64,000 nucleotides of DNA from Minisyncoccota bacterium (GCA_035708165.1 DASSSZ010000006.1:179-64178), one strand, 5' to 3'; shown: positions 4,029 to 33,297, counted from the first letter of the stretch. Notes: a model not told the origin generated them from the sequence alone. Made by a program: numbers and translations.

Positions 4029-4235
4029 ATGCGCGCATCATACCGTATTATTCAAGTATTTCAAGCTGTTTCGAAGTCTTGGGAAAGGGGGATACCGAGG
4101 GTGGGGATAATGGTACACTTATCAACATGTTATCCACAGGAGTGTTTATTTTCAGCCATGCTGGATTGAAAAATAAGCCTCATTCCTCAGTGGGCTATAA
4201 TTCTGTGCATATCCGATTCATCCTATGTTGTGCGC
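4029..4235. promoter_or_regulatory. rpmH/dnaA divergent intergenic region with DnaA boxes (oriC-associated, dnaA promoter region)
   Basis: Perfect TTATCCACA at 4130..4138, plus near-matches cTTATCAACa at 4119..4128 and GGGGATAAT at 4103..4111. The region is AT-rich relative to the flanks. Confidence 0.5.
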
Positions 4236-5597: not shown

Positions 5598-5849
5598 ATT
5601 TGCTGTGGATAGCGCGAGGGAAAACCTATGGGAAAGCATGCGGAAAACCACTCGAATAACAGCTCGCGAACGGGGATAACCAGAACGGCAGTTCGCTTAT
5701 CCCCAGCCCTATCCCCGCTTTCCACTCGGTAATCCCCAGCTCCATAAACAAATCATGAAGCGAGAATCCGAGATATCAAGCCGAGTTTGCTGTTTTTCCC
5801 CGTATCCACACCCCTAATAGTAGTTATAGTAGTTTTTAATAAAACCTTT
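5598..5849. promoter_or_regulatory. Candidate oriC core: dnaA-dnaN intergenic region with DnaA boxes and an AT-rich unwinding element
   Basis: gTATCCACA at 5802..5810 and TGTGGATAg at 5604..5612 (reverse-orientation box). Further matches are cTTATCCCC near 5697 and GGGGATAAC near 5670. An AT-rich stretch (taatagtagttatagtagtttttaataaaacc) lies at 5815..5846. Confidence 0.6.
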
Positions 5850-14000: not shown

Positions 14001-14266
14001 ACAGTGTCGTGGGCGCGAAGTTCCCGACCTTCGAGAATGGTCGCGTGCGCATCAATGACACGCAGTACTTCGACGGCATCCCGAAGGAAGTCTGGGAGTT
14101 CTATATCGGCGGCTATCAGCCCGCGCAGAAATGGCTCAAGGACCGCCGCGGCCGCACCCTCACCTACGATGACATCGAGCACTACCGCCGCTTCACCACC
14201 GCGCTCCAGGAGACAATCCGGGTGATGGGCGATGTGGATAGCATCCTAGCTTCATCTGGGAACTGA
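11024..14266 (+). CDS. Single-polypeptide Type IIL/IIG restriction-modification enzyme (MmeI-family-like: N-terminal PD-(D/E)xK nuclease + gamma-class N6-adenine MTase + C-terminal specificity domain)
   Basis: N-terminal ..PDFAIVRGKIPLGYAEAKDIGIDLD.. and ..LILTDYLEFRFY.. align to the MmeI D..EXK nuclease and its following strand. MTase motif I is DPATGTGTFL and motif IV is VLGNPPYSG. The C-terminal ..YIGGYQPAQKWLKDRRGRTLTYDDI.. is typical of type IIG/ISP/PglX TRD-coupler regions. Confidence 0.8.
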   Translation: MALWAHMATLEDAIARYVAALDEQYQTGIAIEHAYRPALKALLGEIIPGTTPVNDPKHSEHGAPDFAIVRGKIPLGYAEAKDIGIDLDAVVKSDQMRRYFGYKNLILTDYLEFRFYRDGAQYEESITVAKVSDGRIVPVDTTAKLAHVTLELMEGAPEPIRSANRLAEIMGGKARRIRDNVIRYLEGDSERNREFRQMLEVFRDRLVHTITPAQFADMYAQTLVYGLFAARYADRTPDNFSRQEARDLVPHSNPLLREFFDHIAGAGFDERLTIIVDELCEVFTHAAVHELIERAYRQDAKIGETKESRDPIIHFYEDFLKEYDPAQRVQLGVFYTPPAVVSFIVRSIDRILQERFALPRGLADESMIEAKLPTQGIDKRTKGEVKYETRQVHRVEILDPATGTGTFLNQVIRHIHAAYFEGNEGAWQPYVSAHLLPRLFGFELLMASYTIAHLKLAMTLAETGYTDERTRLGIYLTNTLDEPIDTIPRLAFGLDQAITDEAYQASRIKKDLPIMVVLGNPPYSGISSNPQYRGNADYKKEPGTNEKLNERKNWLDDDYVKFIHFAESLIRKNGEGIVGMITAHGYLDNPTFRGMRYRLLETFDEIYVLDLHGNANKKEKAADGTKDENVFDIKTGTAILLGIRGKKEGKGERKELADVYHAEMLGTRLSKYERLNQSDWASVSWQKLEPAHDRYYFVPVAEGDDEYEQGIAVNDIFDVGVTGIVTARDSVVIDTDKDVLRARIDMFCDPELSDDEVRRKLFPGKKDGKYKAGDTRGWKLDAARKKIRDKDHDAAIKPIAYRPFDTRWVYYDPDMVDWGREKIMNRILKGKNLYLVVHKREELKIPFAHALVTDLMTEHGVTSGKTTNYQFPLYLYPEQQTTDDTRRTPNLKTDAIKQFEDATDLAFEPENCGGGATICPYDILDYIYAVLYSPSYRAKYGEFLKRDFPRVPLPSSAEQFRALAGKGSELRQLHLLTHPVLARPVATFPVLGDSVVGAKFPTFENGRVRINDTQYFDGIPKEVWEFYIGGYQPAQKWLKDRRGRTLTYDDIEHYRRFTTALQETIRVMGDVDSILASSGN

Positions 14267-14493: not shown

Positions 14494-14559
14494 CTCGGGT
14501 TACCCGAGTTACGAGTATTCTCTCATGCGTACATCACGTGTCAAATGTAAATACATTTG
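14494..14559. promoter_or_regulatory. Palindromic operator candidates in the AT-rich promoter region of the TA operon
   Basis: Perfect 7-1-7 inverted repeat ctcgggt-t-acccgag at 14494..14508. Perfect 8-2-8 inverted repeat caaatgta-aa-tacatttg at 14542..14559, abutting the antitoxin start region. Confidence 0.45.
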
Positions 14560-14592
14560 CACAGGAGTGGACTTCCTGTGGATAAGTATGCT

Positions 14593-15318
14593 ATGAATAT
14601 ACCTATGGATATACAGAAACTTCGGAAAGAGCATGGTATGACCCAGGCGGATCTTGCAAACCGCCTCGGGATGTCACGGCCGACGCTGATCCGTATCGAG
14701 AAGGGTGAACGGCCGTTGACTGCACGCGAGGGGCACGAACTCCGCATGCTTTTCGGTATGCTCGATTCGGATGCTGCCGAGCGCGAGCAGTTCGACGATG
14801 TGCGCATCAGCATCCCCCAGAAGAATCTCGAGAAATTCAAGCAGGTACTGCTCTATGTCTTGAAGCAGGCCGGTGCCAAGCCGAATATCGGCATGACCGC
14901 ACTCTACAAACTGCTCTACTTCATCGATTTCGACTATTACGAGAAGTACGGGACGCAGCTGATGGGCCTGACCTATTTCAAGAACACGCATGGGCCAGCG
15001 CCGCGCGAGTTCATCAAGGTGGTGAATGAGATGAAGGAAAAGAAGGAGGTGGATGAAGTGAAAAGTAAGTACTTCACATATGAGCAACGCAAGTTCTTGC
15101 CGCTCATCGAGCCAGACCTGGCTATCCTGAGTGCGCGCGAGAAGGAGATGATCGACAATGTGCTGCTGCGGTACTCGGATAAGTCCGCATCAGAACTCTC
15201 ACGCCTTTCGCATATTGATACGCCATGGGATGTCGCGAAGGATGGCGAAGACCTTGATTATGAGCATGTGTTCTATCGGCCGGCCGAGCTCTCGGTGCGC
15301 GAGTACGATGAGCTCTAA
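14593..15318 (+). CDS. Antitoxin candidate: N-terminal XRE-type HTH fused to a Panacea (DUF4065, SocA/GepA-like) domain
   Basis: HTH region ..MTQADLANRLGMSRPTLIRIEKGERPLT..; Panacea-like core ..ALYKLLYFIDFDYYEKYGTQLMGLTYFKNTHGPAP... The ORF track starts at TTG 14557; in-frame ATGs are at 14593 and 14605. The stop overlaps the next start (TAATG). Confidence 0.6.
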   Translation: MNIPMDIQKLRKEHGMTQADLANRLGMSRPTLIRIEKGERPLTAREGHELRMLFGMLDSDAAEREQFDDVRISIPQKNLEKFKQVLLYVLKQAGAKPNIGMTALYKLLYFIDFDYYEKYGTQLMGLTYFKNTHGPAPREFIKVVNEMKEKKEVDEVKSKYFTYEQRKFLPLIEPDLAILSAREKEMIDNVLLRYSDKSASELSRLSHIDTPWDVAKDGEDLDYEHVFYRPAELSVREYDEL

Positions 15319-15686
15319 TGCGGCCGTGTATGGAATTCGCCGAACTGCCGGAATTTTCCCGAGAACTGAAATCCCTGAAGAAGAAATATAAGTCGCTCGA
15401 GGGCGACTTGGAAACGCAGCGGGACGTGTTGCAGACCAGGCCGGAAGGAACTGGTGGTAAACACTGGATTTGCCTGCACCAGAACGACGAATTCTCGATA
15501 TGGAAGACGAGGCTCGCATGCAAGACGCTTAAGGGGGACAAGATGCGCGTGATCTATGCATTCATTTTCAGTAGTGCACGGATCGAGTACGTAGAGATTT
15601 ATTTCAAGGGAGACAAACCCAACGAGGACCGCGAGCGCGTAGCGGCCTATATAAAAGAAACGAAGAAGCGGCTAGGGCTAGACTAG
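15318..15686 (+). CDS. Toxin candidate, RelE/ParE-superfamily (HigB/Gp49-like) mRNA-interferase-type protein
   Basis: 122 aa; the alternative ATG at 15330 gives MEFAELPEF... The C-terminus ..RVIYAFIFSSARIEYVEIYFKGDKPNEDRERVAAYIKETKKRL resembles the Gp49/HigB family tail. The gene is translationally coupled to the upstream HTH-Panacea gene. Confidence 0.45.
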   Translation: MRPCMEFAELPEFSRELKSLKKKYKSLEGDLETQRDVLQTRPEGTGGKHWICLHQNDEFSIWKTRLACKTLKGDKMRVIYAFIFSSARIEYVEIYFKGDKPNEDRERVAAYIKETKKRLGLD

Positions 15687-16694
15687 CTTCGTCTGGAGGT
15701 CCTCCGGCATGTCGAAGCCGAGGTGGGCGTAGGCGGCGGGGGTGGCGATGCGGCCGCGCGGCGTCCGTTCGAGGAAACCGATCTGCATGAGGTACGGCTC
15801 ATGCACCTCTTCGATCGTGCTCTGCTCCTCCGAGAGCGCGGCACCGAGGGTCCCGAGGCCGACCGGCCCGCCGCGGTATTTCCCGATGATCGCGGAGAGG
15901 ATATCGCGGTCGCTCTGCGTGAGGCCTTGCTCGTCGATCTCAAGCAGCGCGAGGGCTTTTGAAGCCATCTGCGCGTCCATCGCGCCGCCATGCACCTGCG
16001 CGTAATCGCGGCAGCGCTTGAGGAGGTAGTTCGCCGTGCGCGGCGTGAAGCGGCTGCGCTTCGCGATCTCCGCGCGGGCGTCGGCAGGCAGGGAGAGCCC
16101 GAGGATGGCCGCCGAGCGCTCGAGGATCCGCTCGATCTCGGCGGGCGTGTAATAGATGAGGCGGAACGTGCCGCCAGAGAAGCGGGAGCGCAAGGGCGCC
16201 GAGAGGAGCGAGATGCGCGTCGTCGCCGCGATCAGGGTGAACGCCGGCAGCTCGAGCTGCACCGTGCGGGCCGACGGGCCCTTGCCGATCACGATATCGA
16301 GGACGCCCGATTCCATCGCGGGGTAGAGGACTTCCTCGATCGTCTTATTGAGGCGGTGGATCTCGTCGATGAAGAGGATATCGCCCGGCGAGAGGTTCGT
16401 GAGGATGCTCGCGAGGTCGCCCACGCGCTCGATCGCGGGACCGGAGGTCGCGCGCAGCTGCGAGCCCATCTCGCGGGTGATGAGGTGCGCGAGCGTCGTC
16501 TTGCCGAGCCCCGGCGGCCCGTAGAGGAGCACGTGCTCCGGCTGCTGGCCGCGCTCCTTCGCCGCCGTGAGCAGGATCGCGAGATTCTTCTTGATGGATT
16601 CCTGGCCGATATACTCGTCCCACTGCGCCGGGCGCAGCGCTTGGTCCAGCGATTTCGCGTTCTCCGGGGGGATCGTGGGTTCGGTATCGGTCAT
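15678..16694 (-). CDS. ruvB: Holliday junction branch-migration ATPase RuvB
   Basis: LLYGPPGLGKTTLA Walker A, sensor motifs and the winged-helix C-terminus. The ATG at 16694 (MTDTEPT..) is the likely start. The ORF track extends to 16760 by in-frame read-through. Confidence 0.93.
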   Translation of the reverse strand: MTDTEPTIPPENAKSLDQALRPAQWDEYIGQESIKKNLAILLTAAKERGQQPEHVLLYGPPGLGKTTLAHLITREMGSQLRATSGPAIERVGDLASILTNLSPGDILFIDEIHRLNKTIEEVLYPAMESGVLDIVIGKGPSARTVQLELPAFTLIAATTRISLLSAPLRSRFSGGTFRLIYYTPAEIERILERSAAILGLSLPADARAEIAKRSRFTPRTANYLLKRCRDYAQVHGGAMDAQMASKALALLEIDEQGLTQSDRDILSAIIGKYRGGPVGLGTLGAALSEEQSTIEEVHEPYLMQIGFLERTPRGRIATPAAYAHLGFDMPEDLQTKLV

Positions 16695-16946
16695 GGGCGA
16701 TAGTTGACAGATTATGGCGGGTGTGCTACACTGCCGCCCAGTGATGCAGCGATGCATCATCTTCCATTTTCAGAGGCACGAATCTCTCAGCAATGGGTGA
16801 GTGCTACGAGGACGGGCCAGTTCCGCATTCGTGCGGCTCGCTTGCCCTATCCTTAGCCGGCGCTCCTCTTTCGCATACCATTGAAAGCATTGCTGAGAGG
16901 TTCGTGTTCCCGAACGGGCCATCGCTGCATACATTATATAAGAGGA

Positions 16947-16988
16947 ACCCCCGGTCGCCACTGTCGGCGCCGGGGTTCTTCTTGTCTG
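16947..16988 (+). terminator. Plus-strand hairpin plus U-tract (candidate terminator of an unannotated plus-strand transcript)
   Basis: Hairpin cccccggtcgcc-actgtc-ggcgccgggg followed by ttcttcttgtct. Confidence 0.35.
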
Positions 16989-17000
16989 GTATGCCAGAGA

Positions 17001-17030
17001 ATAAAAAAGCTGGCAGGAATTCCTGCCGGC
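17001..17030 (-). terminator. Rho-independent terminator of pilB (minus strand)
   Basis: Perfect hairpin gccggcaggaattcctgccagc followed on the minus strand by TTTTTTATT (plus-strand aataaaaaa at 17001..17009). Confidence 0.6.
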
Positions 17031-17107
17031 AGTCCGCTCCATAGGTGCCAGACGAACCCATGTGCACGTGTAAGCATACCGTGCGATCCTGAGGAACGAA
17101 TGAAGGC

Positions 17108-18775
17108 TCAGGCGTTGAGGTCGATGACGCGGCCGAGCTCGTCGAGGGAGGTGATGCCGCGCAGGACCTTCACCATGCCGTCCTGCGCCATCGAGCGGAT
17201 CTCCTGGTGCTTCGCGCCTTCCCAGATCTCGCGCTCGGTCGGGTTCTTGCGGAGGAGCTCTTCGATAGTGCGATCCATGACGATCGCCTCGACGATGGCG
17301 ATGCGTCCCTTATAGCCGATCCCCCCGCATTCTTCGCAGCCGGTCGCGGTCCACATGATGTCGCGGTTCCTGGGCGTGTCTTCCGGGTGGGGGATGTCAG
17401 CCATCAGGCGCTCCACGATATCCCGGTCCGTGCCGGCGATCGGCGTCGCGGCACGGCAGTGCGTGCACAGCTTGCGCACGAGGCGCTGCGCCATGGCGAT
17501 GTTGATCGAGGAGCCGAGGACTTCCGCCTCGATGCCGAAGTCGATGAGGCGCGGGAACGTGCCGGCGGCATCGTTCGTGTGCAGCGTGGAGAAGACGAGG
17601 TGGCCGGTGAGCGCGGCCTGCACGGCGGTCGTCGCCACTTCAGCGTCACGGATCTCGCCGACCATGATCACGTCCGGGTCCTGGCGCAGCGTCGAGCGCA
17701 ATCCCTGCGCGAACGAATAGTCCTTCGAGACCTGCGTCTGCACGATGCCTTCGAGGTGGTACTCGACCGGGTCTTCGATCGTGACGACCTTGTTCTCGGA
17801 CGAGTGCACCGCCGTCAGGAACGCGTAGAGCGTGGTCGTCTTGCCGGAGCCGGTCGGGCCGGTGTTGAGGATCATGCCGTTCGGCTTCTGGATCTCATGA
17901 GTGATGATGTCCATGAAGTAGGAATCGAAGCCGAGCTCCGGCATCGAGAGCGCGATCGTGGTCGGGTCGAGGATGCGCATCACGATGGTCTCCGCGTAGT
18001 TGCCCGGCAGGACCGAGGTGCGGATCTCGATCTCCTTATCGTTCACGATGATCGAGAGCCGCCCGTCCTGCGCGATGTCCTTGAGGTTGAGCTTGAGGCC
18101 GGAGAGCAGCTTGATGCGCGCGGCGACGAGCTCGTACGTCGCGTGGTCGAACTGCAGCACCTCATGGAGCACGCCGTCGAGACGGTAGCGCATGCGCACG
18201 AACGATTCCTCAGGCTCGAGATGCACGTCGGATGCGCCGAGCGAGAGCGCGCCTGCCATGATGACTTCGAGCACGTGCGAGATGCGGTGCGAATCCGTGC
18301 CCGCGATGTAGCGCTCCGCCTGCTCCTTCACGGAGTCGATCGAGTTGATCTCGTTGATCAGCTTCTGGATGGTCTCCTGCGAGATCGTAAGCACGCCCGC
18401 CTCGCTCTCGGTCGAGTAGGAGATGTCCTTATAGCGGTCCCACGCGCGCTCGAGAGATGCGCGTGAGACGATGAATCGGACGATGGAGTAGCCGAGCCGC
18501 TCGATCGACTGCAGCACGGCGAGCGAGTCCTGCCGCTCAGGCGCGCGCATCGCGACGAACACCTTCTTGCCGATCTTGCGGAAGAATGCGAGCTCGGCTT
18601 TCCGCGCGACATCCTCCGGCACGAGCGAGAGCGCATCAGCGTCGATCGAAGTGCGGGTGAGGTCGGTGTAGTCGATGCCGTATTTCTGCGAGAGCATCTG
18701 CGCGAGCTCCTCCTCCTCCTGGCCGCGGAGGTCATCGAGGCGGTCTTCCTGCTTCTTCTCGTCGAACTCGATCAT
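17108..18775 (-). CDS. pilB: Type IV pilus assembly ATPase PilB (GspE-family secretion ATPase)
   Basis: N1/N2 GSPII domains, Walker A GPTGSGKTTT, Asp/His boxes and the tetracysteine CTHC..CEEC zinc motif. The ATG at 18775 (MIEFDEKKQ..) is the start. The ORF-track extension to 19438 overlaps tsaE on the other strand and is not coding. Confidence 0.9.
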   Translation of the reverse strand: MIEFDEKKQEDRLDDLRGQEEEELAQMLSQKYGIDYTDLTRTSIDADALSLVPEDVARKAELAFFRKIGKKVFVAMRAPERQDSLAVLQSIERLGYSIVRFIVSRASLERAWDRYKDISYSTESEAGVLTISQETIQKLINEINSIDSVKEQAERYIAGTDSHRISHVLEVIMAGALSLGASDVHLEPEESFVRMRYRLDGVLHEVLQFDHATYELVAARIKLLSGLKLNLKDIAQDGRLSIIVNDKEIEIRTSVLPGNYAETIVMRILDPTTIALSMPELGFDSYFMDIITHEIQKPNGMILNTGPTGSGKTTTLYAFLTAVHSSENKVVTIEDPVEYHLEGIVQTQVSKDYSFAQGLRSTLRQDPDVIMVGEIRDAEVATTAVQAALTGHLVFSTLHTNDAAGTFPRLIDFGIEAEVLGSSINIAMAQRLVRKLCTHCRAATPIAGTDRDIVERLMADIPHPEDTPRNRDIMWTATGCEECGGIGYKGRIAIVEAIVMDRTIEELLRKNPTEREIWEGAKHQEIRSMAQDGMVKVLRGITSLDELGRVIDLNA

Positions 18776-18841
18776 GTTCCTATTGTATACGACCAGCGCT
18801 CGAAGGCCGCGGCCGGATGGGCAAAATGCTACAATTCCCCC

Positions 18842-19309
18842 ATGGCTGCAGGCGATGCGGACAGCGACGTGGTCACGAAGGACGAGCTCGAGGCGGAAGC
18901 CGCGCGGCTTGCCGATGAGGTGCGCAGAGCGGCTCCCGCAGGGCACGCGGCAGTGATCGCGCTTTCGGGCGATCTCGGCAGCGGCAAGACGACCTTCGCA
19001 CAGGCGTTCGCGCGAGCGCTCGGCATCGAGGCGCATGTGACCAGCCCGACGTTCGTCATCGAGAAGCGCTACCCCGTGCCGCAGGCGGGCAAGCACGCGT
19101 TCCGCACGTTCGTGCATGTCGATGCGTACCGCCTCGATGACCCGAAGGAGCTCGCGCAGCTCGGCTGGCACGGCACGATCGACGACCCGTCGAACATCGT
19201 CCTCATCGAGTGGGCGGACAAGGTGGCTTCCCTCCTGCCGGACGATGCGTATCGCATCGCGCTCGCGTTCCGCGACGAGCGCACGCGCACTCTCACCTAT
19301 GGCGACTAA
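18842..19309 (+). CDS. tsaE: tRNA threonylcarbamoyladenosine biosynthesis protein TsaE (YjeE)
   Basis: P-loop GDLGSGKTTFAQAFARALG and the SPTF.. motif; 155 aa. Confidence 0.85.
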   Translation: MAAGDADSDVVTKDELEAEAARLADEVRRAAPAGHAAVIALSGDLGSGKTTFAQAFARALGIEAHVTSPTFVIEKRYPVPQAGKHAFRTFVHVDAYRLDDPKELAQLGWHGTIDDPSNIVLIEWADKVASLLPDDAYRIALAFRDERTRTLTYGD

Positions 19310-21812
19310 GAAGACGGCACCGAAGGCGGCGAAGAACGCAGCGGCGAAACGCGCGCCGAAGCGCGTACCAACGACGAAGGATGCGTCCGCGAAGAAGCCT
19401 GCGCATGCGCTCGCGGGCGCGAAGCGCCCGCGGGTCATCCTCCTCGATTCTCACGCGATCATGCATCGCGCGTACCACGCGCTGCCGGAGTTCACTTCCG
19501 ACTCCGGCGAGCCGACGGGCGCCCTCTACGGGCTCGTCTCGATGCTGGTGAAGATGGTGCACGACCTCTCGCCCGAGTACATCATCGCGGCATACGACCT
19601 GCCGGGCGGCACCCACCGCCATGAGGTGTACGAGGAGTACAAGGGTACGCGCGGCCCGCTCGATGACGCGCTCGCGCGACAGCTCAACCGCGCACCCGAG
19701 GTGTACGAGGCATTCGGCATCCCGGCGATCGGCGTCAAAGGGTTCGAGGCGGATGACATCCTCGGCACGCTCGCGCACCGCCTGCGCGATACGACCGAAG
19801 CCGACGTCATCATCGCGACCGGCGATCACGACACGCTGCAGCTCGTAGATGATTCGCGCGTGCGCGTGTACACCTTGCGCAAGGGCCTTGCGGACACCGT
19901 GCTCTACGACGCGGATGCCGTGCGCGAACGCTACGGGTTCGGGCCGGAGCACATCGCCGATTACAAGGGGCTCGCCGGGGACCCGTCCGATAACATCAAG
20001 GGCGTGAAGGGGATCGGGCAGAAGAGCGCGACCGAGCTCATCGCCGCATTCGGGGGGATCGAGGATATCTACCGCGTGCTCGAGGCGCATCCCGAGCGGT
20101 TCGCCGAGGCGGGCATCAAGCCGCGCGTGCAGTCGCTCCTCATCGAAGGGAAGGACGATGCGATCTTCAGCAAGATGCTCGCGACCATCCGGACCGATGC
20201 GCCGGTCGTCTACGAACTGCCGAAGGAGACATGGCGCGAGAGTTTCGACGTATCCCGCGCGCTCACGCTCTGCGATGATCTCGGATTCCGCTCGCTCGGC
20301 GGCCGGGTGCGCTCGCTCACGCCCGGGATCGCATTCGACCGCGAGCAGGATGCCGCGGACGCGGACGCGGCCAGCGCGGATGATCCGCGCGAGCTCGCCG
20401 AGGCGAAGGTGATGCTCTGGCTCCTGCACTCCGATATGACGAACCCCGATCGCGAGGATGTCCTGCGCGCGACCAAGACGAAGACGCTCGGCGAGGCGCA
20501 CGCCGCGCTCCTGCAAAGCCTGCGCGCGACCGGCCGCCTCGCGCGCGTCTACGAAGAGATCGAGAAGCCGCTCATCCCGATCGTCCTCTCCATGCACGAG
20601 CTCGGGATCGTCGTCGACAGCGCGTATCTCGGCAGGCTCTCCTCGCGCTACCACGCCGAGCTCGAGACGATCGTTTCGCGCATCTATGAGCTCGCCGGCC
20701 ACGAGTTCAATCTCAACTCGCCGCGCCAGCTCGGCACGGTCCTCTTCGATGAGCTCGGGCTGGGGCAGGGGGGTGCCAAGAAGAAGACGGCGACCGGCCA
20801 GCGCTCGACGCGCGAGGACGAGCTCGCGAAGCTCGCCGGCGAGCACGAGATCATCGGCAAGATCCTCGAATACCGCGAGCTGCAGAAGCTGCTCTCGACC
20901 TACATCGACAACCTGCCCTCCATGGTCGCGGCGGACGGCCGGCTCCATGCGCGGTTCCTGCAGGAGGGCACGACGACCGGCCGCATGGCGAGCGCTGATC
21001 CCAACCTGCAGAACATCCCCACGAAGCCCGGCTACGGCAAGCCGATCCGCGATGCGTTCCGCGCGAGCGAAGGCTACCAGCTCGTCGCGATCGACTACTC
21101 GCAGATCGAGCTTCGGATCGCAGCAGGACTCTCCGGCGACGAACGGCTCATCGAGGTGTTCCGCGAGGGCGGCGATATCCATCGATCCGTCGCGTCGCGC
21201 GTGTTCGGCGTGCCGCCGGAGAATGTGGACGCTGAGATGCGCCGGCGTGCGAAGGTCATCAACTTCGGGATCCTCTACGGCATGGGCGTGAACGCCTTGC
21301 GCGCGAATCTCGGAGACGCGGTCTCGCGCGCGGACGCGGCAGCGTACCTCGCCGGCTACTTCGCGAACTACGCGGGCCTCGCGGCGTACATCGAGCGCGT
21401 GAAGGCCGACGCGGCCCGCCTCGGCTACACCGAGACGCTCTTCGGCAGGCGACGCAGCTTCGCCGGCTTCGACTCGCCGCTGCCGTACGTGCGTGCGGCA
21501 GCCGAGCGCATGGCGGTGAACGCGCCCATCCAGGGTACGCAGGCCGATATCATCAAGCTCGCGATGGTCCGTGCCGACCGGGCGCTCGCCGAGGAAGGCG
21601 CGTCCCTCGATGCGCGGCTCCTCTTGCAGGTGCACGACGAGCTCGTCTACGAGATCATGGACGCGCGCGTGCACGAGCTCGCGAAGCTGATCCGCGGCAT
21701 CATGGAGTCGGTCGCTCCCGAAGACGGCCTCTCAGGCGTTCCGATCATCGCCGAGGTCTCGGCCGGGAAGACCTGGGGATCGCTCTCGCGCATCGAGCGG
21801 AAGGATCTCTGA
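19299..21812 (+). CDS. polA: DNA polymerase I (5'-3' exonuclease + polymerase domains; no obvious intact 3'-5' proofreading motifs noted)
   Basis: ATG at 19299 (MATKKTAPK..), overlapping the tsaE stop by 11 nt. FEN-like N-terminus (LLDSHAIMHRAYHA..), polymerase motifs (..DYSQIELRI.., ..QVHDELV..). The ORF track start at 19116 is an over-extension. Confidence 0.95.
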   Translation: MATKKTAPKAAKNAAAKRAPKRVPTTKDASAKKPAHALAGAKRPRVILLDSHAIMHRAYHALPEFTSDSGEPTGALYGLVSMLVKMVHDLSPEYIIAAYDLPGGTHRHEVYEEYKGTRGPLDDALARQLNRAPEVYEAFGIPAIGVKGFEADDILGTLAHRLRDTTEADVIIATGDHDTLQLVDDSRVRVYTLRKGLADTVLYDADAVRERYGFGPEHIADYKGLAGDPSDNIKGVKGIGQKSATELIAAFGGIEDIYRVLEAHPERFAEAGIKPRVQSLLIEGKDDAIFSKMLATIRTDAPVVYELPKETWRESFDVSRALTLCDDLGFRSLGGRVRSLTPGIAFDREQDAADADAASADDPRELAEAKVMLWLLHSDMTNPDREDVLRATKTKTLGEAHAALLQSLRATGRLARVYEEIEKPLIPIVLSMHELGIVVDSAYLGRLSSRYHAELETIVSRIYELAGHEFNLNSPRQLGTVLFDELGLGQGGAKKKTATGQRSTREDELAKLAGEHEIIGKILEYRELQKLLSTYIDNLPSMVAADGRLHARFLQEGTTTGRMASADPNLQNIPTKPGYGKPIRDAFRASEGYQLVAIDYSQIELRIAAGLSGDERLIEVFREGGDIHRSVASRVFGVPPENVDAEMRRRAKVINFGILYGMGVNALRANLGDAVSRADAAAYLAGYFANYAGLAAYIERVKADAARLGYTETLFGRRRSFAGFDSPLPYVRAAAERMAVNAPIQGTQADIIKLAMVRADRALAEEGASLDARLLLQVHDELVYEIMDARVHELAKLIRGIMESVAPEDGLSGVPIIAEVSAGKTWGSLSRIERKDL

Positions 21813-22575: not shown

Positions 22576-24276
22576 ATGGAACGGGAACCGATCGCGAGCG
22601 CGGGAGCGCGCGGAATCCTCCTCGTCGCAGCGCTCTTCGCGCTTTCGCTCCCCGCCAGCGCGCACGCGCAGGCGAACACGGCGAACTACTGCATCACGAG
22701 CACGAGCCCGGTCCGCGCGGAGACTATTCCCTGGACGCCCACGCAGTGCTGCAACACGGGCCCTGACGGCGAGGCGAGCGCGATCCAGTTCAGCGCGCAG
22801 TGCAGCTTCGGCGGCACGATCAGCGAATCGAACGGCACATCGGGCGCGAGCGGCGGCGGCGGGGGCGGCGGAGGGTCTTCGCAGATCCAGCAGGTCTTAG
22901 GACAGGTCATCCAGCAGCTGATGAAGCAGACGCCTTCGCAGATGGGGACGGCGGGGCAGTGCGGCTCGTCGCTCTCCGGCGTGACCAGCGCGACCGAAGG
23001 CGATCCCCGCTACTGCTCGATCGTCGTGCTCACGCCATGCCCCATCATCATAAAGGTGAGCAAGAACGAATTCAGCGGCAACTGCCCCGATCAGGCCATG
23101 GCGCTCGGCGGCCAGGTCTCCGGCATCGGCTCCCAGCTCTCGGGACTCATCCAGAACGTGATGAAGGGCGTCGTGACGAACCTCGTCGGCTCGATCATCG
23201 GCGGCTTGGGCGGCGGTGGCGGGAGCGGCGGCGCGGCATACCCGACCGGGAGCACGGTGGTCGGCACCGGGACCGGCGACTCGAATCTCTACACCGACAC
23301 GAGCGGCTACAGCACCGGCGCGAACAGCTCGGCGGACATCAGCCAGCTCCTGCAGGACATCCTCAATGGCTCGGCCGGGAGTGGCACGGATACGGGAGTA
23401 TCCGGAACCTCAGGGACGAGCGGCGGCACGGATACGGGCACGTCGGGTTCTGACACGGGAACGTCCGGCACCTCCGGCATATCGGGAACGTCCGGCATAT
23501 CCGGCATATCCGGCACGAGCGGCACAAGCGCGGGTACGCAAGGCAACAGCTCGAGCGGCGTCGTAATCCCGCCGCCGCCATCGTACTTCACGGGCGAGGC
23601 GGGGCAGTCATCGTCCGCCCCGGCCGCGTCGAGCGCGGGCACGGCGCAGAGCGGCGTCGTCGGGAATGTCTGCGCATCGCGGCCGTGGGCGAGCGGCATC
23701 ATCTCGTCGGTCATTCCGACTTCCTTCTTCGACAGCCTCTGCTCGCTCTGGAACGGCGCAGGAAGCGATACGGGCGCAGGGGCGCCGCAATCGCAGACGT
23801 TCGCACCCGATGTCGTCGTACGCGGCATCTCCTGCCCGGCTGTCGCCCGGCCCGGGGTGCCCGTGCGGATCAGCTGGACGTGCGGGCCGCGCGCGACGCT
23901 CTCCGCCGTAGCCGGCTTCACGCTCGCGAACAAGAATCTGACATCCATAATGGTGACGCCGGCCCAGGCGAGCCAGGTCTACGGCATCCAGTGCTCCGAC
24001 GGCTTCGAGAGCGTGTGCACCGTGAACACGATCGATCCGAAGGTACAGCTCGTCGCGACGCCGGCGCATGTGCGCGTCGGATCGCGCACGAGCCTCGCGT
24101 GGGTCTCGCAGGACGTGCAATCGTGCGAAGTCACGGGCCCCTCGATGGATCAGACCGACCTCTACGGCAACGCACAGACGGGTCCCATCACGCAGCCGAC
24201 GACCTTCACCGCGACGTGCAAGACGGCGGCCGGCGAGACCGTCTCGGATTCGGTGACGGTGGATTTCGCGCAGTAA
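22576..24276 (+). CDS. Secreted cysteine-containing Gly/Ser/Thr-rich low-complexity protein with C-terminal tandem beta-domains (paralogous module to the C-terminus of the 29020..33297 protein)
   Basis: Signal peptide ..LLVAALFALSLPASAHAQA. Poly-Gly (GGGGGGGG) and TSGTSGISGTSGISG repeats. C-terminus ..IQCSDGFESVCTVNTIDPKVQLVATPAHVRVGSRTSLAWVSQDVQSCEV.. matches ..VGCSDGTSNSCQVRVLHPLVTLVAFPEAVARGASAQIGWSGADVVACAL.. of the giant protein. Confidence 0.5.
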   Translation: MEREPIASAGARGILLVAALFALSLPASAHAQANTANYCITSTSPVRAETIPWTPTQCCNTGPDGEASAIQFSAQCSFGGTISESNGTSGASGGGGGGGGSSQIQQVLGQVIQQLMKQTPSQMGTAGQCGSSLSGVTSATEGDPRYCSIVVLTPCPIIIKVSKNEFSGNCPDQAMALGGQVSGIGSQLSGLIQNVMKGVVTNLVGSIIGGLGGGGGSGGAAYPTGSTVVGTGTGDSNLYTDTSGYSTGANSSADISQLLQDILNGSAGSGTDTGVSGTSGTSGGTDTGTSGSDTGTSGTSGISGTSGISGISGTSGTSAGTQGNSSSGVVIPPPPSYFTGEAGQSSSAPAASSAGTAQSGVVGNVCASRPWASGIISSVIPTSFFDSLCSLWNGAGSDTGAGAPQSQTFAPDVVVRGISCPAVARPGVPVRISWTCGPRATLSAVAGFTLANKNLTSIMVTPAQASQVYGIQCSDGFESVCTVNTIDPKVQLVATPAHVRVGSRTSLAWVSQDVQSCEVTGPSMDQTDLYGNAQTGPITQPTTFTATCKTAAGETVSDSVTVDFAQ

Positions 24277-24924: not shown

Positions 24925-25908
24925 CTAATACGAGAGCACGTCGACGGTGCGGCCGGACGGGTCGAGGAGCCGGATCACATCGTGCGACGGGTTCCAGAGC
25001 GGTTGCGCGCTGCCGAGGTAGACGCGCCAGGCTGTCCCGGCGAAGCCGCTGTCCCATTGGTGCCTGTCGATGCAGCCATTATATGAGAGCGCGCCCGTGA
25101 CGAAGCTGCGGCACGCATCCGAGAGGCCTGCCGGGAACGAATCGAGGTGGTACGAGCACGACGGCAGGGTCGCGACGTAGTCCACGCATGATGCGCCGTA
25201 CATCTGCAGGTTATCGAGCGTGTCCGGCAGCTCGGACTGCGGCGTCGGGCAGCGGTTCGAAAGGGAGGGAACGAAGTCGCGGAACTGAGCGAGGTACCCT
25301 GAGCACTCATTCTCCTGGAACGAGATGCCGACAGGCGAGACGCCGGAGGCGATGATCGCGGAGCCCCCGGGCGCGAGCGTGATATCCGAGAGCGCCGGGA
25401 CCGCGCCGAGGCGCAGCACGGCAGTGCCGGACGGGAGCGGGATGACGCGGCCGGTGACCGCGCTCTCGAGCGACCAGCCGGCGAGGTCGACGGGCGCCGT
25501 CGCGGTGGCGGAAGCCGTAATCGTCACGTACTCGCTGTCAGGGTCCGCGCTGCCGGCGCCATGGGGCGCGCCTGCAGCCGCGAAGGATACCTCACCGCGC
25601 AGAGGCGATTGCTGCCCGAATTCCTTGGCGCGCTCGATCCGCTTCGCGTCCGCATCCGATCCGGCCGTCCCCGAGCCGCCCTCGACCCATACCGTCGTCC
25701 CGTCGGCGTTCACCTGGGGGACTGCCGGGGCCATGGCCGCCGGCGTGAATGAGACGGGCTTGCCTTTCTGCGATTCGAGATAGCCGGCCACCGGATTCTG
25801 GTACCCGGCAGCAGCATCCTTGATGCGCGCCCACGCGCCGCCGGCGAGCCAGAGATAGGCGCCGATCGCGATCGCGAGCAGGAAGAGGATGGCGAGGAAA
25901 CGGCCCAT
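24925..25908 (-). CDS. Membrane-anchored secreted protein with a lamin-tail-like (LTD) beta-sandwich domain, Cys-rich C-terminus
   Basis: N-terminal TM/signal (MGRFLAILFLLAIAIGAYLWLAG). LTD-like ..DPDSEYVTITASATATAPVDLAGWSLES..GRVIPLP... Eight or more Cys in the C-terminal 120 aa. Confidence 0.45.
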   Translation of the reverse strand: MGRFLAILFLLAIAIGAYLWLAGGAWARIKDAAAGYQNPVAGYLESQKGKPVSFTPAAMAPAVPQVNADGTTVWVEGGSGTAGSDADAKRIERAKEFGQQSPLRGEVSFAAAGAPHGAGSADPDSEYVTITASATATAPVDLAGWSLESAVTGRVIPLPSGTAVLRLGAVPALSDITLAPGGSAIIASGVSPVGISFQENECSGYLAQFRDFVPSLSNRCPTPQSELPDTLDNLQMYGASCVDYVATLPSCSYHLDSFPAGLSDACRSFVTGALSYNGCIDRHQWDSGFAGTAWRVYLGSAQPLWNPSHDVIRLLDPSGRTVDVLSY

Positions 25909-28172: not shown

Positions 28173-28760
28173 CTAGTGCGGGAAGAGCTCGCGCTCGCGC
28201 GCGGCGAGCCGCTCCCAGAGCGGGCGGTAGAGCAGCTCGAACACGCCCCCGTGCGTGCGCACCCGCGCTTCCTTGTACTCAGTGGCCATCGCGAGCGTGA
28301 CGCCGTGCTCCTTCCACAGGAGTCCGTCCTCCATGTAGATATTGAGGGGGTCCATCATCTTATCGAGCGCGTACACGAAGCGGCTTTCTTCATCATCGCG
28401 TCGCTCGTATGCCGCCATGGTCTCGATGAGGCTGCTGAATTCAGGGTGGTCGGCCGCGATCCGCTCCCGCGCCGCGCGCTCGCGCTCCTCTTTCGTCTCC
28501 CGGCAGGCTTCGTCATAGATGTACGTATCCCCGGCGTATGCCTCGACGATGTCATGGCAGAGCGCGTACGCCAGCACACGCTCGCGGTCGAGCGCGAGGT
28601 GCTGCGTATCCATGACGTACCACGCGGCCATCGCGACCTGCCAGCTATGCTCGACCATGTTCGCGCGACGCGTCTCTCCGGGGATCCGCGCCACCCGCTC
28701 GACGCGGTGGGCCGCATGCGTGAGCGAAAGGAAGGAGAGCAGGCGGTCGAGGAAGGGCAT
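28173..28760 (-). CDS. HD-domain phosphohydrolase (YfbR-like 5'-deoxynucleotidase family)
   Basis: ATG at 28760 (MPFLDRLLS..). Metal-binding H..HD..D motifs (..EHSWQVAMAAWY.., ..LCHDIVEAYAGD..). The ORF track extends to 28916 across the tRNA. Confidence 0.7.
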   Translation of the reverse strand: MPFLDRLLSFLSLTHAAHRVERVARIPGETRRANMVEHSWQVAMAAWYVMDTQHLALDRERVLAYALCHDIVEAYAGDTYIYDEACRETKEERERAARERIAADHPEFSSLIETMAAYERRDDEESRFVYALDKMMDPLNIYMEDGLLWKEHGVTLAMATEYKEARVRTHGGVFELLYRPLWERLAARERELFPH

Positions 28761-28837
28761 GCGGCCAGTATACCGGCTCCGGCGGCTCGCTAAAACGCGC
28801 GATAAATGGTACAGTACGGCGGCGAAGCGATTGAACT

Positions 28838-28909
28838 GCTCCCGTAGTTCAATGGATAGAACGCGGGCTTGCGGAGCCCGTAATGTAGGTTCGATTCCTA
28901 CCGGGAGCA
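28838..28909 (+). tRNA. tRNA-Arg (anticodon GCG)
   Basis: Acceptor gctcccg/cgggagc, D-arm gttc-aatggata-gaac, anticodon stem cgggc/gcccg with loop ttGCGga, T-arm gtagg-ttcgatt-cctac. Confidence 0.8.
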
Positions 28910-29019
28910 CTTGCATGGACGAGAGGCGGCCGCACTGCGGCCACCTCTCGTCCGGTATCCGATCCCGCTATGCACGGCAGCGCGTAGCTGCCTGCGCACG
29001 CACCCGGTATCATGAGTGC

Positions 29020-32000
29020 ATGACCACCTGGCGCATCGCCATGCCGATCGTGCTTGCTGCAGCCGTGCTGTGCCTGCCGATCGCCGCGGCAGCCACGACG
29101 GGCACCGATGCGCAGGGGAGCGGAGGCACGGCAGGTTCGCCGCAGGCGACGACAGTGAGCAATACCGACGAGAGCACCGACTCGGCCGGCGTCTCCACGA
29201 GCGGCGGCAACACGACCATTACGGGGACGGCGCACAAGCCGACGTGCGACTGCGAGGATATGAGCACGTGCACGCCGGACCAGAAGCAGCAGCTGATGAA
29301 TTCCTGCAACCGGACATGCGGGACGATCTCGTGGACGGACGAGACCGGCTCATCGCATGCATGCGTGAAGACGGGCGGCGGCTGCACAGGGGGCGGCGGG
29401 GGCGCGTCCTGCAGCGCGACGGACCTCAAGACCGTGGCGTCGCGCCTCAATGCCGGCCTGCCAGTCACGCTCAATGAGGACGGAAAGTTCTATTCGAACG
29501 TATCGATCGGCAGCGCCTCGGGCGGCGGCCTCTCGCTCGAGAAGATCTTCGGCGACGATGCGCCCGCCGCACCGGCTTCTGAGAGCGGCGTGACGGATCC
29601 CGGCCTCCTCACGCCGACCCCGGAGAGCGAGATCTCGCCCCCGAACCTCGCTGGCGTGACGGGAAGCAAGGATCCCGCCCAGGCCCCCATCACGACGGCG
29701 CCGACAGCTGCGAGCACGCCGGGCTTCCTGGTGGACAGTTCATCGTATATGGCGGACATGGGCGACGCGCCGCTCTCCGGCGGCAATGCCTTCGTCCCGC
29801 AGGATCGCTCGCCCGTGCAGACGAGCAGCTTCACCGGCTTCTTCCCGACGCTGCCAGTCTCCGGGTCATCGCCGGAGCAGGCATACCTCTCGAGCGGCGG
29901 CCTGCTCAGCAGCCATGCCTCGGCGAATGCGGGCACGTTCTCGCTGTACGCCCGCGATTACGGCGCGCTCTATGGCGGCACGGGAAATTCGGAGAATGTC
30001 GCGAGCCTCGTGACGGCGCAGACCGCGTATGAGAACCCGAGCTATGACAGCACATGCTCCGGCGTCGGCGCGTGCGGCATCGGCCAGTACATCCCGTCCA
30101 CGTGGAATGCCGATTACGGCAAGATGCTCTCGGCGACGCAGAACCTTGCCGCGAACGGCACGCCTTCCGAGCAGCAGGCGGCGAACGAGCTGCTCACGCA
30201 CATCGGCTCGCTCTCCGGGACCGACCTGCGCAGCGATCCGCAGACCGTGGCGGCGGTGATGGCATACCACGACGCGGGTCTCTACCCGAGCTTCACACAG
30301 ACGGCGCAGAACCTCAATGCGAACTACGGCACGAACCTTTCCGTGAGCGATGTCGCGCAGATCGAGCATTTCGGGACCGGCTACTACAACACGCTCAAGA
30401 ACTCGCCGACCACGCCGATCACCAGCGTGCAGAGCAGCTTCCTCGCGCAGAACCCGGCTGTCGCGCGCTACTGCTCATCGCCGTGCACCATGATCCAGGC
30501 AGCGCAGGCGGTCGGCGCGGGCTACAGCGGCCGGCCGATCAGCGTCGCCAATAACCTCATCGGATCGACCGACTCGTTCGTCCTTCCCGGGAAGGGGTCG
30601 AGCGCAGGGCAGGCGTTCCAGGTCGCCTCGAATGAGTCGAGCGCGCCGTTCCCGGCAACCTATTCGGGCCCGCCGCGCGGGAACCCCCTCGACGACGTCT
30701 TCGCCTACCTCGGGCAGAACGCGCAAATGGGCGATACGGGCGTCGTCACGACCGGCAACGGCGCACTCGTCGCGATCAATCAGGCGCTCGGCAACCCGAT
30801 CCAGACAGTCACGGAATCCGTCGCGCAGAAGGTACAGGACGGCCTTTCGCAGGTCGGCGCGTGGGCGCTCGGCGGCTATACGGGCGCAGGGAATGCGGGA
30901 AGCAGCGTACCGGATGGAGGCCCGGCGGCAGGTGGCACGGCGGTCGCGGCCGGTCCTGCGCCCGCGGAAGGCACGAGCGTATCGGCTGCGCCCGCAGGTG
31001 AGGATGCGAACCCGATCGTCACTGTGACGGCAGGAACGCCGAGCGTGGCCGACGGCCTGCGCGCAATCGGCACCTGGGCCGTGGACGCCAACGAAAGCGG
31101 GACGATCTCCGCTGACATGTCCGCGATCGGGACGGCCGGACAGGGGTCGCTCGCCGGCACGGACCTCTCCGCATACGCGCAGACCCATGGCCTTACCTCG
31201 ATGGGCCAGGTCGTGAACGGGGATTTCAATGCGCTCGGCATGACGGGCGATGGGTCGGCTGAAGAGGGCCTGCGCGCCATCGGCAGCTGGGCCGTCCCGC
31301 AGGGGAGCGGCTCCGCGATGATCGGCGGCGCGCTCGATTCGGAAGGAGGCGCAGGCTCCGAATACGCGCCGACCCTGACCACTGCTCCTGGCACGGGCGA
31401 ATACGTCGTCGGCACGTCGCCCGACGTGCCGACGGATTTCGATACTTCCGGCGTCTCGCAGGCCTCAGGGCTCGCGACGGGGCAACCCGGCATCGCGCTT
31501 CCGGTCGGGCCCTCCGGCGCGGCGATCCCTGCGGGCGGCGAAGGCTCGGCTGATGGCGCGGATATGCCAGGAATCATCGGCGGCACGCCCCTCCCTCCCT
31601 CGGGCTCGGCAATGATCCAGCCGGGCAACATTACGGTCGTGAAGGGCAGCATCTTCGGGACGATCGGCACCATTGCGCATGCGGCGACGGCGAATATCTC
31701 GAACTATTTCCAATCGCTCGCGAACGCGCAGAAGGGAGTGGGTACGGGAGGCGACACCGCCGAAGCGGTGCACGACGGACTCATGAACGTAGGCACATGG
31801 GCAGTCCCCGGCGCGCCTTCGGAAGCGCCGGACGCATCGCCCTCGGGGACGGCGCCTGCAAGCGGCATGGATGACCTCTTCACGGCGCTCGGCGGGACGG
31901 ACGCTGCGGGCGTCACGCCCACCCTCATGGAGACCACGCAGACGATCCCGGGCACGGTCCTCGCGCCATCGCGATCCACGGTCGCGCAGAGCCAGGAATA

Positions 32001-33297
32001 CCAGCAGGGCATGACGGATCTGCTCAACGGGAGCGCCGTGCGGTTCGGCTCGCTCTCACCCGGCGACCAGAAGAAGCTCATCGGCTACATCCCGCAGATC
32101 ACGGCAATCGCGGGCGACAGCAGCCTCACGGAGGCGCAGAAGAAGGCGCAGATCACGACAGTGCTCATGAGCGACCCGGGCGGGAAGTACGCCGGGCATG
32201 ACGCCGGCTTCGCGATCGAGGTGAGCACCATCCTGCCGGAATCCTTCAAGGAGACAGGAGACCTCTCGAAGCTCGGACTCGGTACCGCCGATCAGGCCAT
32301 GACGAAGATCAGCAGCGTTTATACCAATGCGGCGCAGGCGCTGACCACGACGGCGCCCAGCACGCAGACGACGAGCTACCAGGTGACGCCGGGCACTGCC
32401 GTATCGCAGGCGCTCGGGGAGACGCCGATGGAAACCGATATCGGCATCGACCAGGCCATGACACCATCGGGCGCGGCGGTAGGCGCACCCGCTGTTCCGG
32501 CGAATCCGGCCGCAGGAGGCTCGTCCGCCGGCACGGGTGCATCCGCTCCCGCGGGTGCGGGCGCGAGCGCCGGTACGGGCGCGAGCGCGCCATCGTCCGC
32601 CTCGCCGCTCGGGGGCATCCTCGATCTCATCGGCAGGTCCGGCTCGTCGATCAGCAACGCATTGAGCGGGCTGCTCTCGGGGCTCTTCGGCGGCGGCTCG
32701 AGCCAGGGCGGTTCCTCACAGGGCGGAGCACCGCAGGGCAGCGCGTCGCGCCCCGCGTTCACGTGCGATCCTGCAGCGGTCGTCAGCAGCGCTGAGGCGA
32801 CCGTGACGATCGCCTGGCAATGCGACAGCGGATCGTCATCCGCGCGCGGCACGGGCTTCGGGCAGGGCACGCTCGCGCCGGCCGGGCGCGCCACAGTCAT
32901 GATCGGGACGACGACAGACGAGTGGCTGTCGTACGGAGTCGGCTGCAGCGACGGCACGAGCAACTCCTGCCAGGTGCGCGTGCTGCATCCGTTGGTGACC
33001 CTCGTCGCCTTCCCGGAGGCGGTCGCGCGAGGCGCTTCGGCGCAGATCGGCTGGTCGGGCGCTGACGTGGTGGCGTGCGCGCTCTATGATGCAGACGGCA
33101 CGCTGCGTGCGCATGGCGGTGCCAACGGGTCGTACGCGACCGTGCCGCTTTCGCGCTCGGTCGTGTTCCGCATGGCGTGCCGCAGCAGCCTCGGCACCAT
33201 CATCGTCGCGAGCACGACGATCCCGGTCATCGGCGATGCCAGCGCGCCGCTCGATACGCCGCTGCCGGCGGCGGTGGCGATCCCGGACGCGCAGTAG
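29020..33297 (+). CDS. Giant secreted/surface protein (about 1425 aa): signal peptide, Cys-rich N-terminal module, poly-Gly, lytic-transglycosylase (SLT/lysozyme-like) candidate domain, long Ser/Thr/Gly/Ala low-complexity region, C-terminal tandem beta-domains
   Basis: Start at the ATG at 29020 (MTTWRIAMPIVLAAAVLCLPIAAAATTG). The upstream ORF-track portion overlaps the HD gene and tRNA-Arg. SLT-like ..AYENPSYDSTCSGVGACGIGQYIPSTWNADYG.. (compare ES..A.S.AGA.GLMQF.PSTW) near nt 29990..30400. The C-terminal module is paralogous to the 22576..24276 protein. Confidence 0.6.
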   Translation: MTTWRIAMPIVLAAAVLCLPIAAAATTGTDAQGSGGTAGSPQATTVSNTDESTDSAGVSTSGGNTTITGTAHKPTCDCEDMSTCTPDQKQQLMNSCNRTCGTISWTDETGSSHACVKTGGGCTGGGGGASCSATDLKTVASRLNAGLPVTLNEDGKFYSNVSIGSASGGGLSLEKIFGDDAPAAPASESGVTDPGLLTPTPESEISPPNLAGVTGSKDPAQAPITTAPTAASTPGFLVDSSSYMADMGDAPLSGGNAFVPQDRSPVQTSSFTGFFPTLPVSGSSPEQAYLSSGGLLSSHASANAGTFSLYARDYGALYGGTGNSENVASLVTAQTAYENPSYDSTCSGVGACGIGQYIPSTWNADYGKMLSATQNLAANGTPSEQQAANELLTHIGSLSGTDLRSDPQTVAAVMAYHDAGLYPSFTQTAQNLNANYGTNLSVSDVAQIEHFGTGYYNTLKNSPTTPITSVQSSFLAQNPAVARYCSSPCTMIQAAQAVGAGYSGRPISVANNLIGSTDSFVLPGKGSSAGQAFQVASNESSAPFPATYSGPPRGNPLDDVFAYLGQNAQMGDTGVVTTGNGALVAINQALGNPIQTVTESVAQKVQDGLSQVGAWALGGYTGAGNAGSSVPDGGPAAGGTAVAAGPAPAEGTSVSAAPAGEDANPIVTVTAGTPSVADGLRAIGTWAVDANESGTISADMSAIGTAGQGSLAGTDLSAYAQTHGLTSMGQVVNGDFNALGMTGDGSAEEGLRAIGSWAVPQGSGSAMIGGALDSEGGAGSEYAPTLTTAPGTGEYVVGTSPDVPTDFDTSGVSQASGLATGQPGIALPVGPSGAAIPAGGEGSADGADMPGIIGGTPLPPSGSAMIQPGNITVVKGSIFGTIGTIAHAATANISNYFQSLANAQKGVGTGGDTAEAVHDGLMNVGTWAVPGAPSEAPDASPSGTAPASGMDDLFTALGGTDAAGVTPTLMETTQTIPGTVLAPSRSTVAQSQEYQQGMTDLLNGSAVRFGSLSPGDQKKLIGYIPQITAIAGDSSLTEAQKKAQITTVLMSDPGGKYAGHDAGFAIEVSTILPESFKETGDLSKLGLGTADQAMTKISSVYTNAAQALTTTAPSTQTTSYQVTPGTAVSQALGETPMETDIGIDQAMTPSGAAVGAPAVPANPAAGGSSAGTGASAPAGAGASAGTGASAPSSASPLGGILDLIGRSGSSISNALSGLLSGLFGGGSSQGGSSQGGAPQGSASRPAFTCDPAAVVSSAEATVTIAWQCDSGSSSARGTGFGQGTLAPAGRATVMIGTTTDEWLSYGVGCSDGTSNSCQVRVLHPLVTLVAFPEAVARGASAQIGWSGADVVACALYDADGTLRAHGGANGSYATVPLSRSVVFRMACRSSLGTIIVASTTIPVIGDASAPLDTPLPAAVAIPDAQ

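Follow-up and report, generated by a model that had tools for sequence, protein, structure and literature searches.

The analysed stretch of DNA (hereafter the window: 64,000 nucleotides of a Minisyncoccota bacterium, GCA_035708165.1, DASSSZ010000006.1:179-64178) encodes two exported proteins, A and B, which as judged from their sequences end in the same cassette of two domains, designated D1 and D2. Gene A (22576..24276, + strand) encodes a protein of 566 residues and was assigned, on the basis of its open reading frame (ORF), GC content at third codon positions (GC3), orthologues (P0001-P0007, P0106 and P0156) and synteny, as the long form of a D1-D2 family linked to polA and holA. Gene B (29020..33297, + strand) encodes a low-complexity giant of 1425 residues, and NCBI entry HET8581532.1, from a metagenome-assembled genome (MAG) of a Candidatus Paceibacterota bacterium, is identical to it, including the start. 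All cassette features lie on the + strand. D1 and D2 of A occupy 23821..24033 (residues 416-486) and 24034..24273 (residues 487-566). Their counterparts in B were located by BLASTP and alignment, together with a signature search for D1, at 32752..32985 and 32986..33231, the latter followed by a Pro/Ala-rich tail of 21 residues.

The C-terminal cassette of A and B

BLASTP with composition-based statistics aligned residues 430-562 of A to residues 1262-1401 of B with 29% identity, 45% positives and E=7e-12. The Smith-Waterman score of the two proteins was 158, compared to 33.6 +/- 5.8 (maximum 72) for 1000 shuffles, corresponding to z=21, and each of the six Cys of the A module (C420, C436, C473, C481, C517 and C548) aligned to a Cys in B. 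When scored against a profile built from A-family proteins only, with B left out, the module of B obtained 62 bits. Reciprocal tblastn searches across genomes gave the same picture: the B module of the window matched a short A orthologue at a second locus, L002 (E=4.6e-11), and the A module of the window matched the C-terminus of the giant protein encoded at L002. Based on these comparisons, the last ~150 residues of A and the C-terminus of B are judged to be homologous. This bears out the initial annotation, which had proposed a common C-terminal module on sequence similarity, and the preserved Cys spacing shows that the similarity goes beyond composition. The suggested search of related genomes for further members led to the A-family relatives and to the L002 giant. 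No other ORF of the window contains the D1-D2 module.

Structure prediction of the module by AlphaFold2 (AF2), using an alignment of ten sequences, resulted in two tandem all-beta Ig-like sandwiches with a predicted local distance difference test score (pLDDT) of 92; with just three sequences, the pLDDT was 66. Foldseek matches consisted of tandem Ig and FnIII modules, including the GhpA grappling hook, and the structural neighbours included stalk-forming arrays (GhpA), large adhesion proteins, ICAM and PECAM. Structure comparison placed the domains among the Ig-like beta-sandwiches of two sheets and about seven strands, in agreement with the tandem beta-domains of the initial annotation and with the Ig-like fold it had raised as a question. 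D1 carries four conserved Cys (C420, C436, C473, C481) within the signature C...W-x-C...YG-[IV]-x-C-[SA]-[DN]-G-x4-C-x-V. D2, which was delimited by AF2, profile search and per-domain scores, carries conserved C517 and C548. The Cys pairs of the cassette probably form disulfides, the expected partners being C436-C473 and C420-C481 in D1 and C517-C548 in D2. Between D1 and D2 a weak but in-register alignment was found (hhalign E=0.0056), and generic tandem repeats match over both domains; for these reasons D1 and D2 are probably old duplicates of one repeat.

No family for the module could be identified in A or B among Pfam at E<=1, the thresholds of Big_1-13, PKD, fn3, DUF5979 and other curated Ig-type families not being reached, or among NCBIfam at E<=0.1, Por_Secre_tail (TIGR04183) included. 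For the module, PHROGs gave no more than a weak match (E=0.004), to an entry whose function is unknown. The sortase- or pilin-like motifs that the initial annotation had proposed to look for are absent: neither A nor B contains an LPXTG-like motif, a C-terminal transmembrane (TM) segment or a class III signal of type IV pilins and pseudopilins (G/[FM]-T-L-x-E, the slash marking the cleavage site, plus a hydrophobic helix), and hydrophobic windows are found only at the N-terminus of each protein.

To determine the distribution of the module, 1.84 billion representatives of clusters at 50% identity were searched exhaustively with HMMER. The module profile retrieved 7,268 of them at E<=1e-3, of which 278 reached E<=1e-30. 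Nearly all top matches are large proteins with 5-38 tandem units, aligned mostly to the D2 half of the profile (positions 75-152), with the unit pattern P-T-V-x-L-x-A-x-P...G...L-x-W-x-S-x-N-A-x-S-C...Y-T-L-T-C...V-x-V. Pfam and NCBIfam gave sub-threshold matches at most for these generic repeat units (P0011-P0157, e.g. P0100 and P0084). D2 fits this widespread repeat family (L-x-W-x(4-8)-C ... Y-x-L-x-C), and generic repeats reached 40-58 bits on a D2 profile built from A proteins only; from these data D2 is not regarded as lineage-specific. A and B contain one D1 and one D2 each and no further copies, and so differ from the long arrays of 5-38 units.

In D1, W-x-C takes the place of W-x(4-8)-C, and the first and last strands bear an additional pair of Cys. 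A regular expression for the 4-Cys D1 signature, applied to 162 proteins, recovered only the A family, B of the window, the L002 giant and a fragment of 151 residues (P0009). It was found in none of the 131 generic repeat proteins, which have W-x(4-8)-C. The shared 4-Cys D1 is the best evidence for a specific kinship of A and B over the independent use of a common repeat, and the cassette can be described as a specialised derivative of an Ig-like tandem repeat that is very abundant in bacteria. The lineage specificity put forward in the initial annotation holds in this form for the 4-Cys D1 and for D1-D2 taken together as a cassette, but not for D2, which comes from a repeat family of at least 7,268 clusters, most of them unrelated giant proteins. 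Scans of the GTDB representative genomes with the module profile and for the neighbouring LTD-like gene found no relative.

Architecture and conservation of the A family

The GC content of the window is ~66%, and long spurious ORFs occur in every frame as a result. The GC3 of gene A lies between 0.80 and 0.91 from start to stop in its own frame, and two proteins from other metagenomes, P0106 (570 residues) and P0156 (490 residues), have the same architecture end to end. On these two grounds, the whole ORF is considered a genuine gene and no fusion artefact. The exact protein of 566 residues is absent from a collection of 15 billion proteins, in which its neighbours holA and B of the same MAG are present; the gap in locus tags from VFL98_03620 to VFL98_03670 is wide enough for an annotated A.

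A begins with a predicted Sec-type signal peptide (22576..22668, + strand, residues 1-31, ...SLPASAHA/Q, the slash marking the cleavage site), with n-h-c layout and AXA site read from the sequence by eye. The sole hydrophobic segment of A is this N-terminal one, laid out like a cleavable Sec signal peptide, and the same applies to the sole hydrophobic segment of B. The signal peptide of A is followed by a Cys-containing region (22684..23223, + strand) with eight Cys, two Q/L-rich amphipathic stretches and poly-Gly runs. This region is present in long-form orthologues only, aligning to P0106 (28% identity) and P0156, and had no match in Pfam or NCBIfam. A low-complexity linker rich in Gly, Ser and Thr (23224..23661, + strand) comes next, with a G+S+T+A+P fraction of 0.68-0.76 per 50 residues, and in total about half of A is low-complexity sequence. 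Within the linker, Tandem Repeats Finder detected a 27-nt tandem repeat (23456..23526, 2.6 copies, 84% matches) encoding GTSGISGTS units, which is a possible site of variable length. Directly ahead of D1-D2 lies a Cys-bounded loop (23665..23751, + strand, C366...C389, NVCASRPWASGIISSVIPTSFFDSLCSLW) that is kept in all full-length orthologues; its pattern C-x-x-RPW...FFD-x-LC is common to P0006, P0007, P0106 and P0156.

Outside the C-terminus, BLASTP detected no similarity between A and B, and hhalign of the long-form A N-terminal alignment with the N-terminus of B aligned the signal peptides only (E=0.085, probability 0.7%). The N-terminal layout ascribed to both proteins by the initial annotation (Cys module, poly-Gly, Ser/Thr/Gly repeats) is in this respect a likeness of composition and architecture, not of descent. 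One further stretch, undetected by BLAST, was observed by its Gly/Leu/Ile-rich amphipathic character and its poly-Gly end: in A at 23119..23223 (residues 182-216, GLIQNVMKGVVTNLVGSIIGGLGGGGG), and in similar form in B at 32599..32697 (residues 1194-1226, GGILDLIGRSGSSISNALSGLLSGLFGGG) and in the L002 giant at residues 1296-1328. In both giants it precedes the C-terminal cassette by 25-60 residues. The stretch may represent a glycine-zipper-like element or simply reflect composition.

Word-indexed searches yielded nine relatives of A, located on short metagenome contigs. Seven full-length relatives have 224-252 residues, mostly ~230. These short forms are made up of a signal peptide or a hydrophobic anchor at the N-terminus, the Cys-bounded loop of ~25 residues, a short linker and D1-D2. 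In the long forms (A of the window, P0106 and P0156) the Cys-containing region and the Gly/Ser/Thr linker are placed between signal peptide and loop, an extension of ~330 residues in the window. The low-complexity layout noted earlier for both A and B is indeed present in these two proteins, but most A orthologues lack the low-complexity part, and for this reason it is taken as an accessory extension and not as a defining trait. The cassette itself is a conserved single-copy core feature of the lineage.

Seven loci show an invariant gene order, polA-holA-A, in which A comes immediately downstream of polA and of a gene resembling holA. On contigs that extend further, A is upstream of genes for a small membrane protein, an LTD-like protein and a Mur ligase. 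Between the window and L002, identity amounts to 53% for the module, 55% for holA, 54% for the LTD protein, 68% for PolA and 70% for RuvA. The similar values for the module, holA and the LTD protein point to purifying selection on the cassette.

The giant protein B and the surrounding genes

Besides the C-terminal cassette, only one domain of ~220 residues is conserved between B and the L002 giant (15282..19685, 1467 residues), with 50% identity by MAFFT and 43% by tblastn. In B this central domain is encoded at 29932..30579 (+ strand, residues 305-520) and contains the SLT-like motif YENPSYDSTCSGVGACGIGQYIPSTW. SLT (PF01464) is the top Pfam match of both domains, with scores of 12.8 bits for B of the window and 16.6 bits for L002, below the cut-off of 21.3 bits. 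An hhalign comparison with E. coli Slt70 put YENPSYDSTCSGVGACGIGQYIPSTW in register onto the catalytic segment QESAWNPKVKSPVGASGLMQIMPGT, the catalytic Glu included, at E=0.0058 and a probability of only 6%; in SLT enzymes this Glu precedes the motif S-x-x-G-A-x-G-[LI]-x-Q-x-x-P-x-T. The motif of B, of the form YENPxYDS..SG.GA.GI.Q[YF]IPSTW in B and in the L002 domain (17900..18660), is kept in the proteins of L002 and of a further locus, L005, which was the single, short motif match of a metagenome scan with the central-domain alignment. PHROGs gave weak endolysin-type matches. B differs from the SLT/GH23 enzymes in its sub-cut-off scores, in an Asn for Ser after the catalytic Glu and in the lack of any match in PDB sequence searches with the central domain. 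The central-domain alignment also retrieved nothing in a word-indexed protein search, which missed even B although B is present there and thus reached its limit of sensitivity. Taken together, the domain is likely to be a divergent GH23-like lytic transglycosylase.

The SLT-like domain is situated near the N-terminus in B of the window and near the C-terminus in the L002 giant, which moreover ends after D1. From this difference in domain order and the missing D2 it follows that the giant is evolving quickly around two conserved pieces. In the low-complexity middle of B (30820..31824, residues 601-935), a short motif, [DE]GL-x2-[VI]G-[AST]-WA-[VL], occurs four times at intervals of ~70-170 residues (DGLSQVGAWAL, DGLRAIGTWAV, EGLRAIGSWAV and DGLMNVGTWAV), and the L002 orthologue has one similar site.

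The gene at 24925..25908 (- strand) is syntenic with A and encodes a protein of 327 residues with an N-terminal hydrophobic segment, an LTD-like domain and no D1-D2 module. Its match to the Pfam lamin tail domain, LTD (PF00932), is slightly under the cut-off (32.5 against 34.3 bits, E=1.2e-7, profile positions 22-71 of 109). An LTD-like gene adjoins A in L001, L002 and L007, and the LTD matches of these orthologues are faint. Upstream of polA, a PilB/GspE-type type IV pilus assembly ATPase is encoded (17108..19438, - strand), which has the same place in L002. It lies on the strand opposite to A, with polA and holA in between, and no pilin genes were seen beside A or B.

Other regions of the window show distinct features as well. 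The segment 11024..15318 has a lower GC content (0.56-0.60 against ~0.66) and contains genes for a Type ISP restriction-modification enzyme (11024..14266) and for an HTH-SocA/Panacea antitoxin-like protein (14557..15318). Since L002, although syntenic in other respects, has neither of them, the segment is probably an inserted defence island. The genes dnaA (4230..5597) and dnaN (5787..6947), together with a dip in GC content to 0.53 at 4-6 kb, indicate that the window probably includes the replication origin region. Finally, the longest ORF of an HD-domain (YfbR-like) gene (28173..28916, - strand) overlaps a tRNA-Arg gene (28838..28910, + strand), and the true start of the HD-domain gene is probably an internal Met near 28760.

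Possible roles of the cassette

As the invariant part of the A family and the extreme C-terminus in both families, the cassette can be considered, from its conservation, the functional core of these proteins. We give somewhat better than an even chance to the reading that it is an extracytoplasmic unit for binding or targeting, probably stabilised by disulfides. A and B would be exported through the Sec pathway by a Candidatus Paceibacterota bacterium that belongs to the candidate phyla radiation (CPR), and the two-domain Ig-like cassette ending both would bind a surface ligand, on the envelope of the cell itself or on a host surface, and so position the two proteins. Apart from the N-terminal export signal, neither A nor B has a membrane or wall anchor. 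In the A family, where cassette and Cys-bounded loop form the whole mature protein in most genomes, the cassette would act alone; A of the window would have gained its extension in the form of the Cys-containing region and a flexible Gly/Ser/Thr stalk, a role that the Gly/Ser/Thr regions may serve in general. In B, the cassette would sit at the tip of the giant as targeting domain for a putative wall-cutting SLT-like enzyme. High expression of Ig-like-fold proteins during parasitism has been reported for Paceibacterales, with a suggested role of these proteins in host adhesion (Kuroda et al., mBio 2024, PMC10936435), and the SLT-containing giant 'Archaeovorins' of Omnitrophota provide a precedent in host-dependent nanobacteria (bioRxiv 10.1101/2023.11.21.568195). 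The binding reading fits with both.

Several observations weigh against it. The margin by which the module of B exceeds generic repeats on the A-family profile is small (62 against at most 54 bits), and on D2 alone many generic repeats are closer to A than B is. VTGPSFDETG, the D2 loop conserved most strongly across the A family, is not preserved in B, so that A and B need not share a ligand, and the L002 orthologue of B lacks D2 altogether. In other proteins, moreover, Ig-like repeats are often mere spacers. Applied to the present case, this would mean that the two domains are passive spacers without a ligand of their own, drawn by A and B from a common repeat pool. The thousands of tandem-array proteins matched by D2, the nearly equal scores of generic repeats and B on the A-family profile, and structural neighbours such as the GhpA stalk and large adhesion proteins would all be expected in that case. 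However, most A orthologues have, in their mature form, no folded part besides the cassette, and there is nothing to space; the cassette always occupies the extreme C-terminus, in two copies at most, with a derived 4-Cys D1 restricted to the A and B families, and is conserved about as well as the neighbouring housekeeping genes. A spacer role is for these reasons unlikely.

The restriction of the 4-Cys D1 to the A and B families, and their occurrence at the same locus in the window and L002, could also mean that the small A protein is a surface partner which holds the giant B through Ig-Ig pairing of the D1-D2 modules, homophilic pairing of Ig domains being common and ICAM and PECAM being among the structural matches. 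Yet A would have no obvious anchor once its signal peptide is cleaved, the two families are seen together in only two genomes, the window and L002, and the two genes, which do not form one operon, are separated by ~5 kb with housekeeping genes in it, which makes such docking improbable. Less probable still is a C-terminal secretion or sorting signal, recognised and possibly cut off by a machinery for export or attachment, analogous to the C-terminal domain (CTD) of the type IX secretion system (T9SS). A location at the very C-terminal end of two exported proteins that are unrelated in other respects would agree with it, and T9SS CTDs are small Ig-like sandwiches too; but no NCBIfam model matched, the T9SS tail included, there is no LPXTG, C-terminal TM segment or other known sorting motif, short A orthologues would be a signal without cargo, and CPR bacteria are considered monoderm and are not known to have a T9SS. 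A purely compositional similarity, with the ORF of A not being a real gene, has a negligible probability. High-GC DNA does contain many long spurious ORFs and about half of A is of low complexity, but such an artefact was ruled out by composition-corrected BLASTP, the shuffle test and the conserved Cys positions, and is further opposed by the high-confidence fold, orthologues in many metagenomes and the frame-specific GC3.

Among the closest known systems are bacterial tandem-repeat surface proteins of the Ig-like/PKD type, such as giant adhesins, proteins with invasin/intimin-type Big domains, the Aureispira grappling hook GhpA and the large adhesion protein Lap. The cassette differs from them by having two copies only, always at the extreme C-terminus, by W-x-C in place of W-x(4-8)-C and the extra Cys pair in D1, by the lack of a Pfam Big, PKD or FnIII match, and by forming as a pair the whole protein, not a stalk, in most A orthologues. 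The Paceibacterales Ig-like proteins (PMC10936435) resemble A and B in their phylum-level lineage, export, Ig-like/PKD folds, unknown function and proposed role in attachment, a likeness at the level of description. With the T9SS CTD (Por_Secre_tail, TIGR04183), the cassette shares the small Ig-like sandwich at the extreme C-terminus of otherwise unrelated exported proteins; it differs in the absence of a profile match, in a lineage not known for T9SS or an outer membrane, and in short A proteins without cargo.

The homology is real, but the feature itself is ordinary, since tandem Ig-like domains on exported bacterial proteins are commonplace, and the result is an incremental annotation rather than a surprise. 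The novelty is modest and lies in a syntenic family that is so far uncharacterised, in a 4-Cys repeat variant serving as terminal cassette, and in the link of this family to an SLT-like giant. The searches also draw attention to an Ig-like repeat family of great abundance, with at least 7,268 clusters at 50% identity and no Pfam or NCBIfam model that matches it. It is conceivable, if rather doubtful, that D1-D2 represents a lineage-specific envelope-docking system of Paceibacterota, in which the cassettes of A and B pair with each other or bind the same wall or host polymer. If true, this would be a sortase-independent way of holding a cell-wall-cutting enzyme at the symbiont-host interface. 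The attachment of CPR/Patescibacteria episymbionts to their hosts and their feeding on them are poorly understood, and most of their exported proteins are without annotation. The present analysis defines a small, conserved, single-copy exported family, which shares a derived domain with a giant whose central domain probably cleaves peptidoglycan, and thereby offers A and B as two concrete candidates for envelope or host-interface functions.

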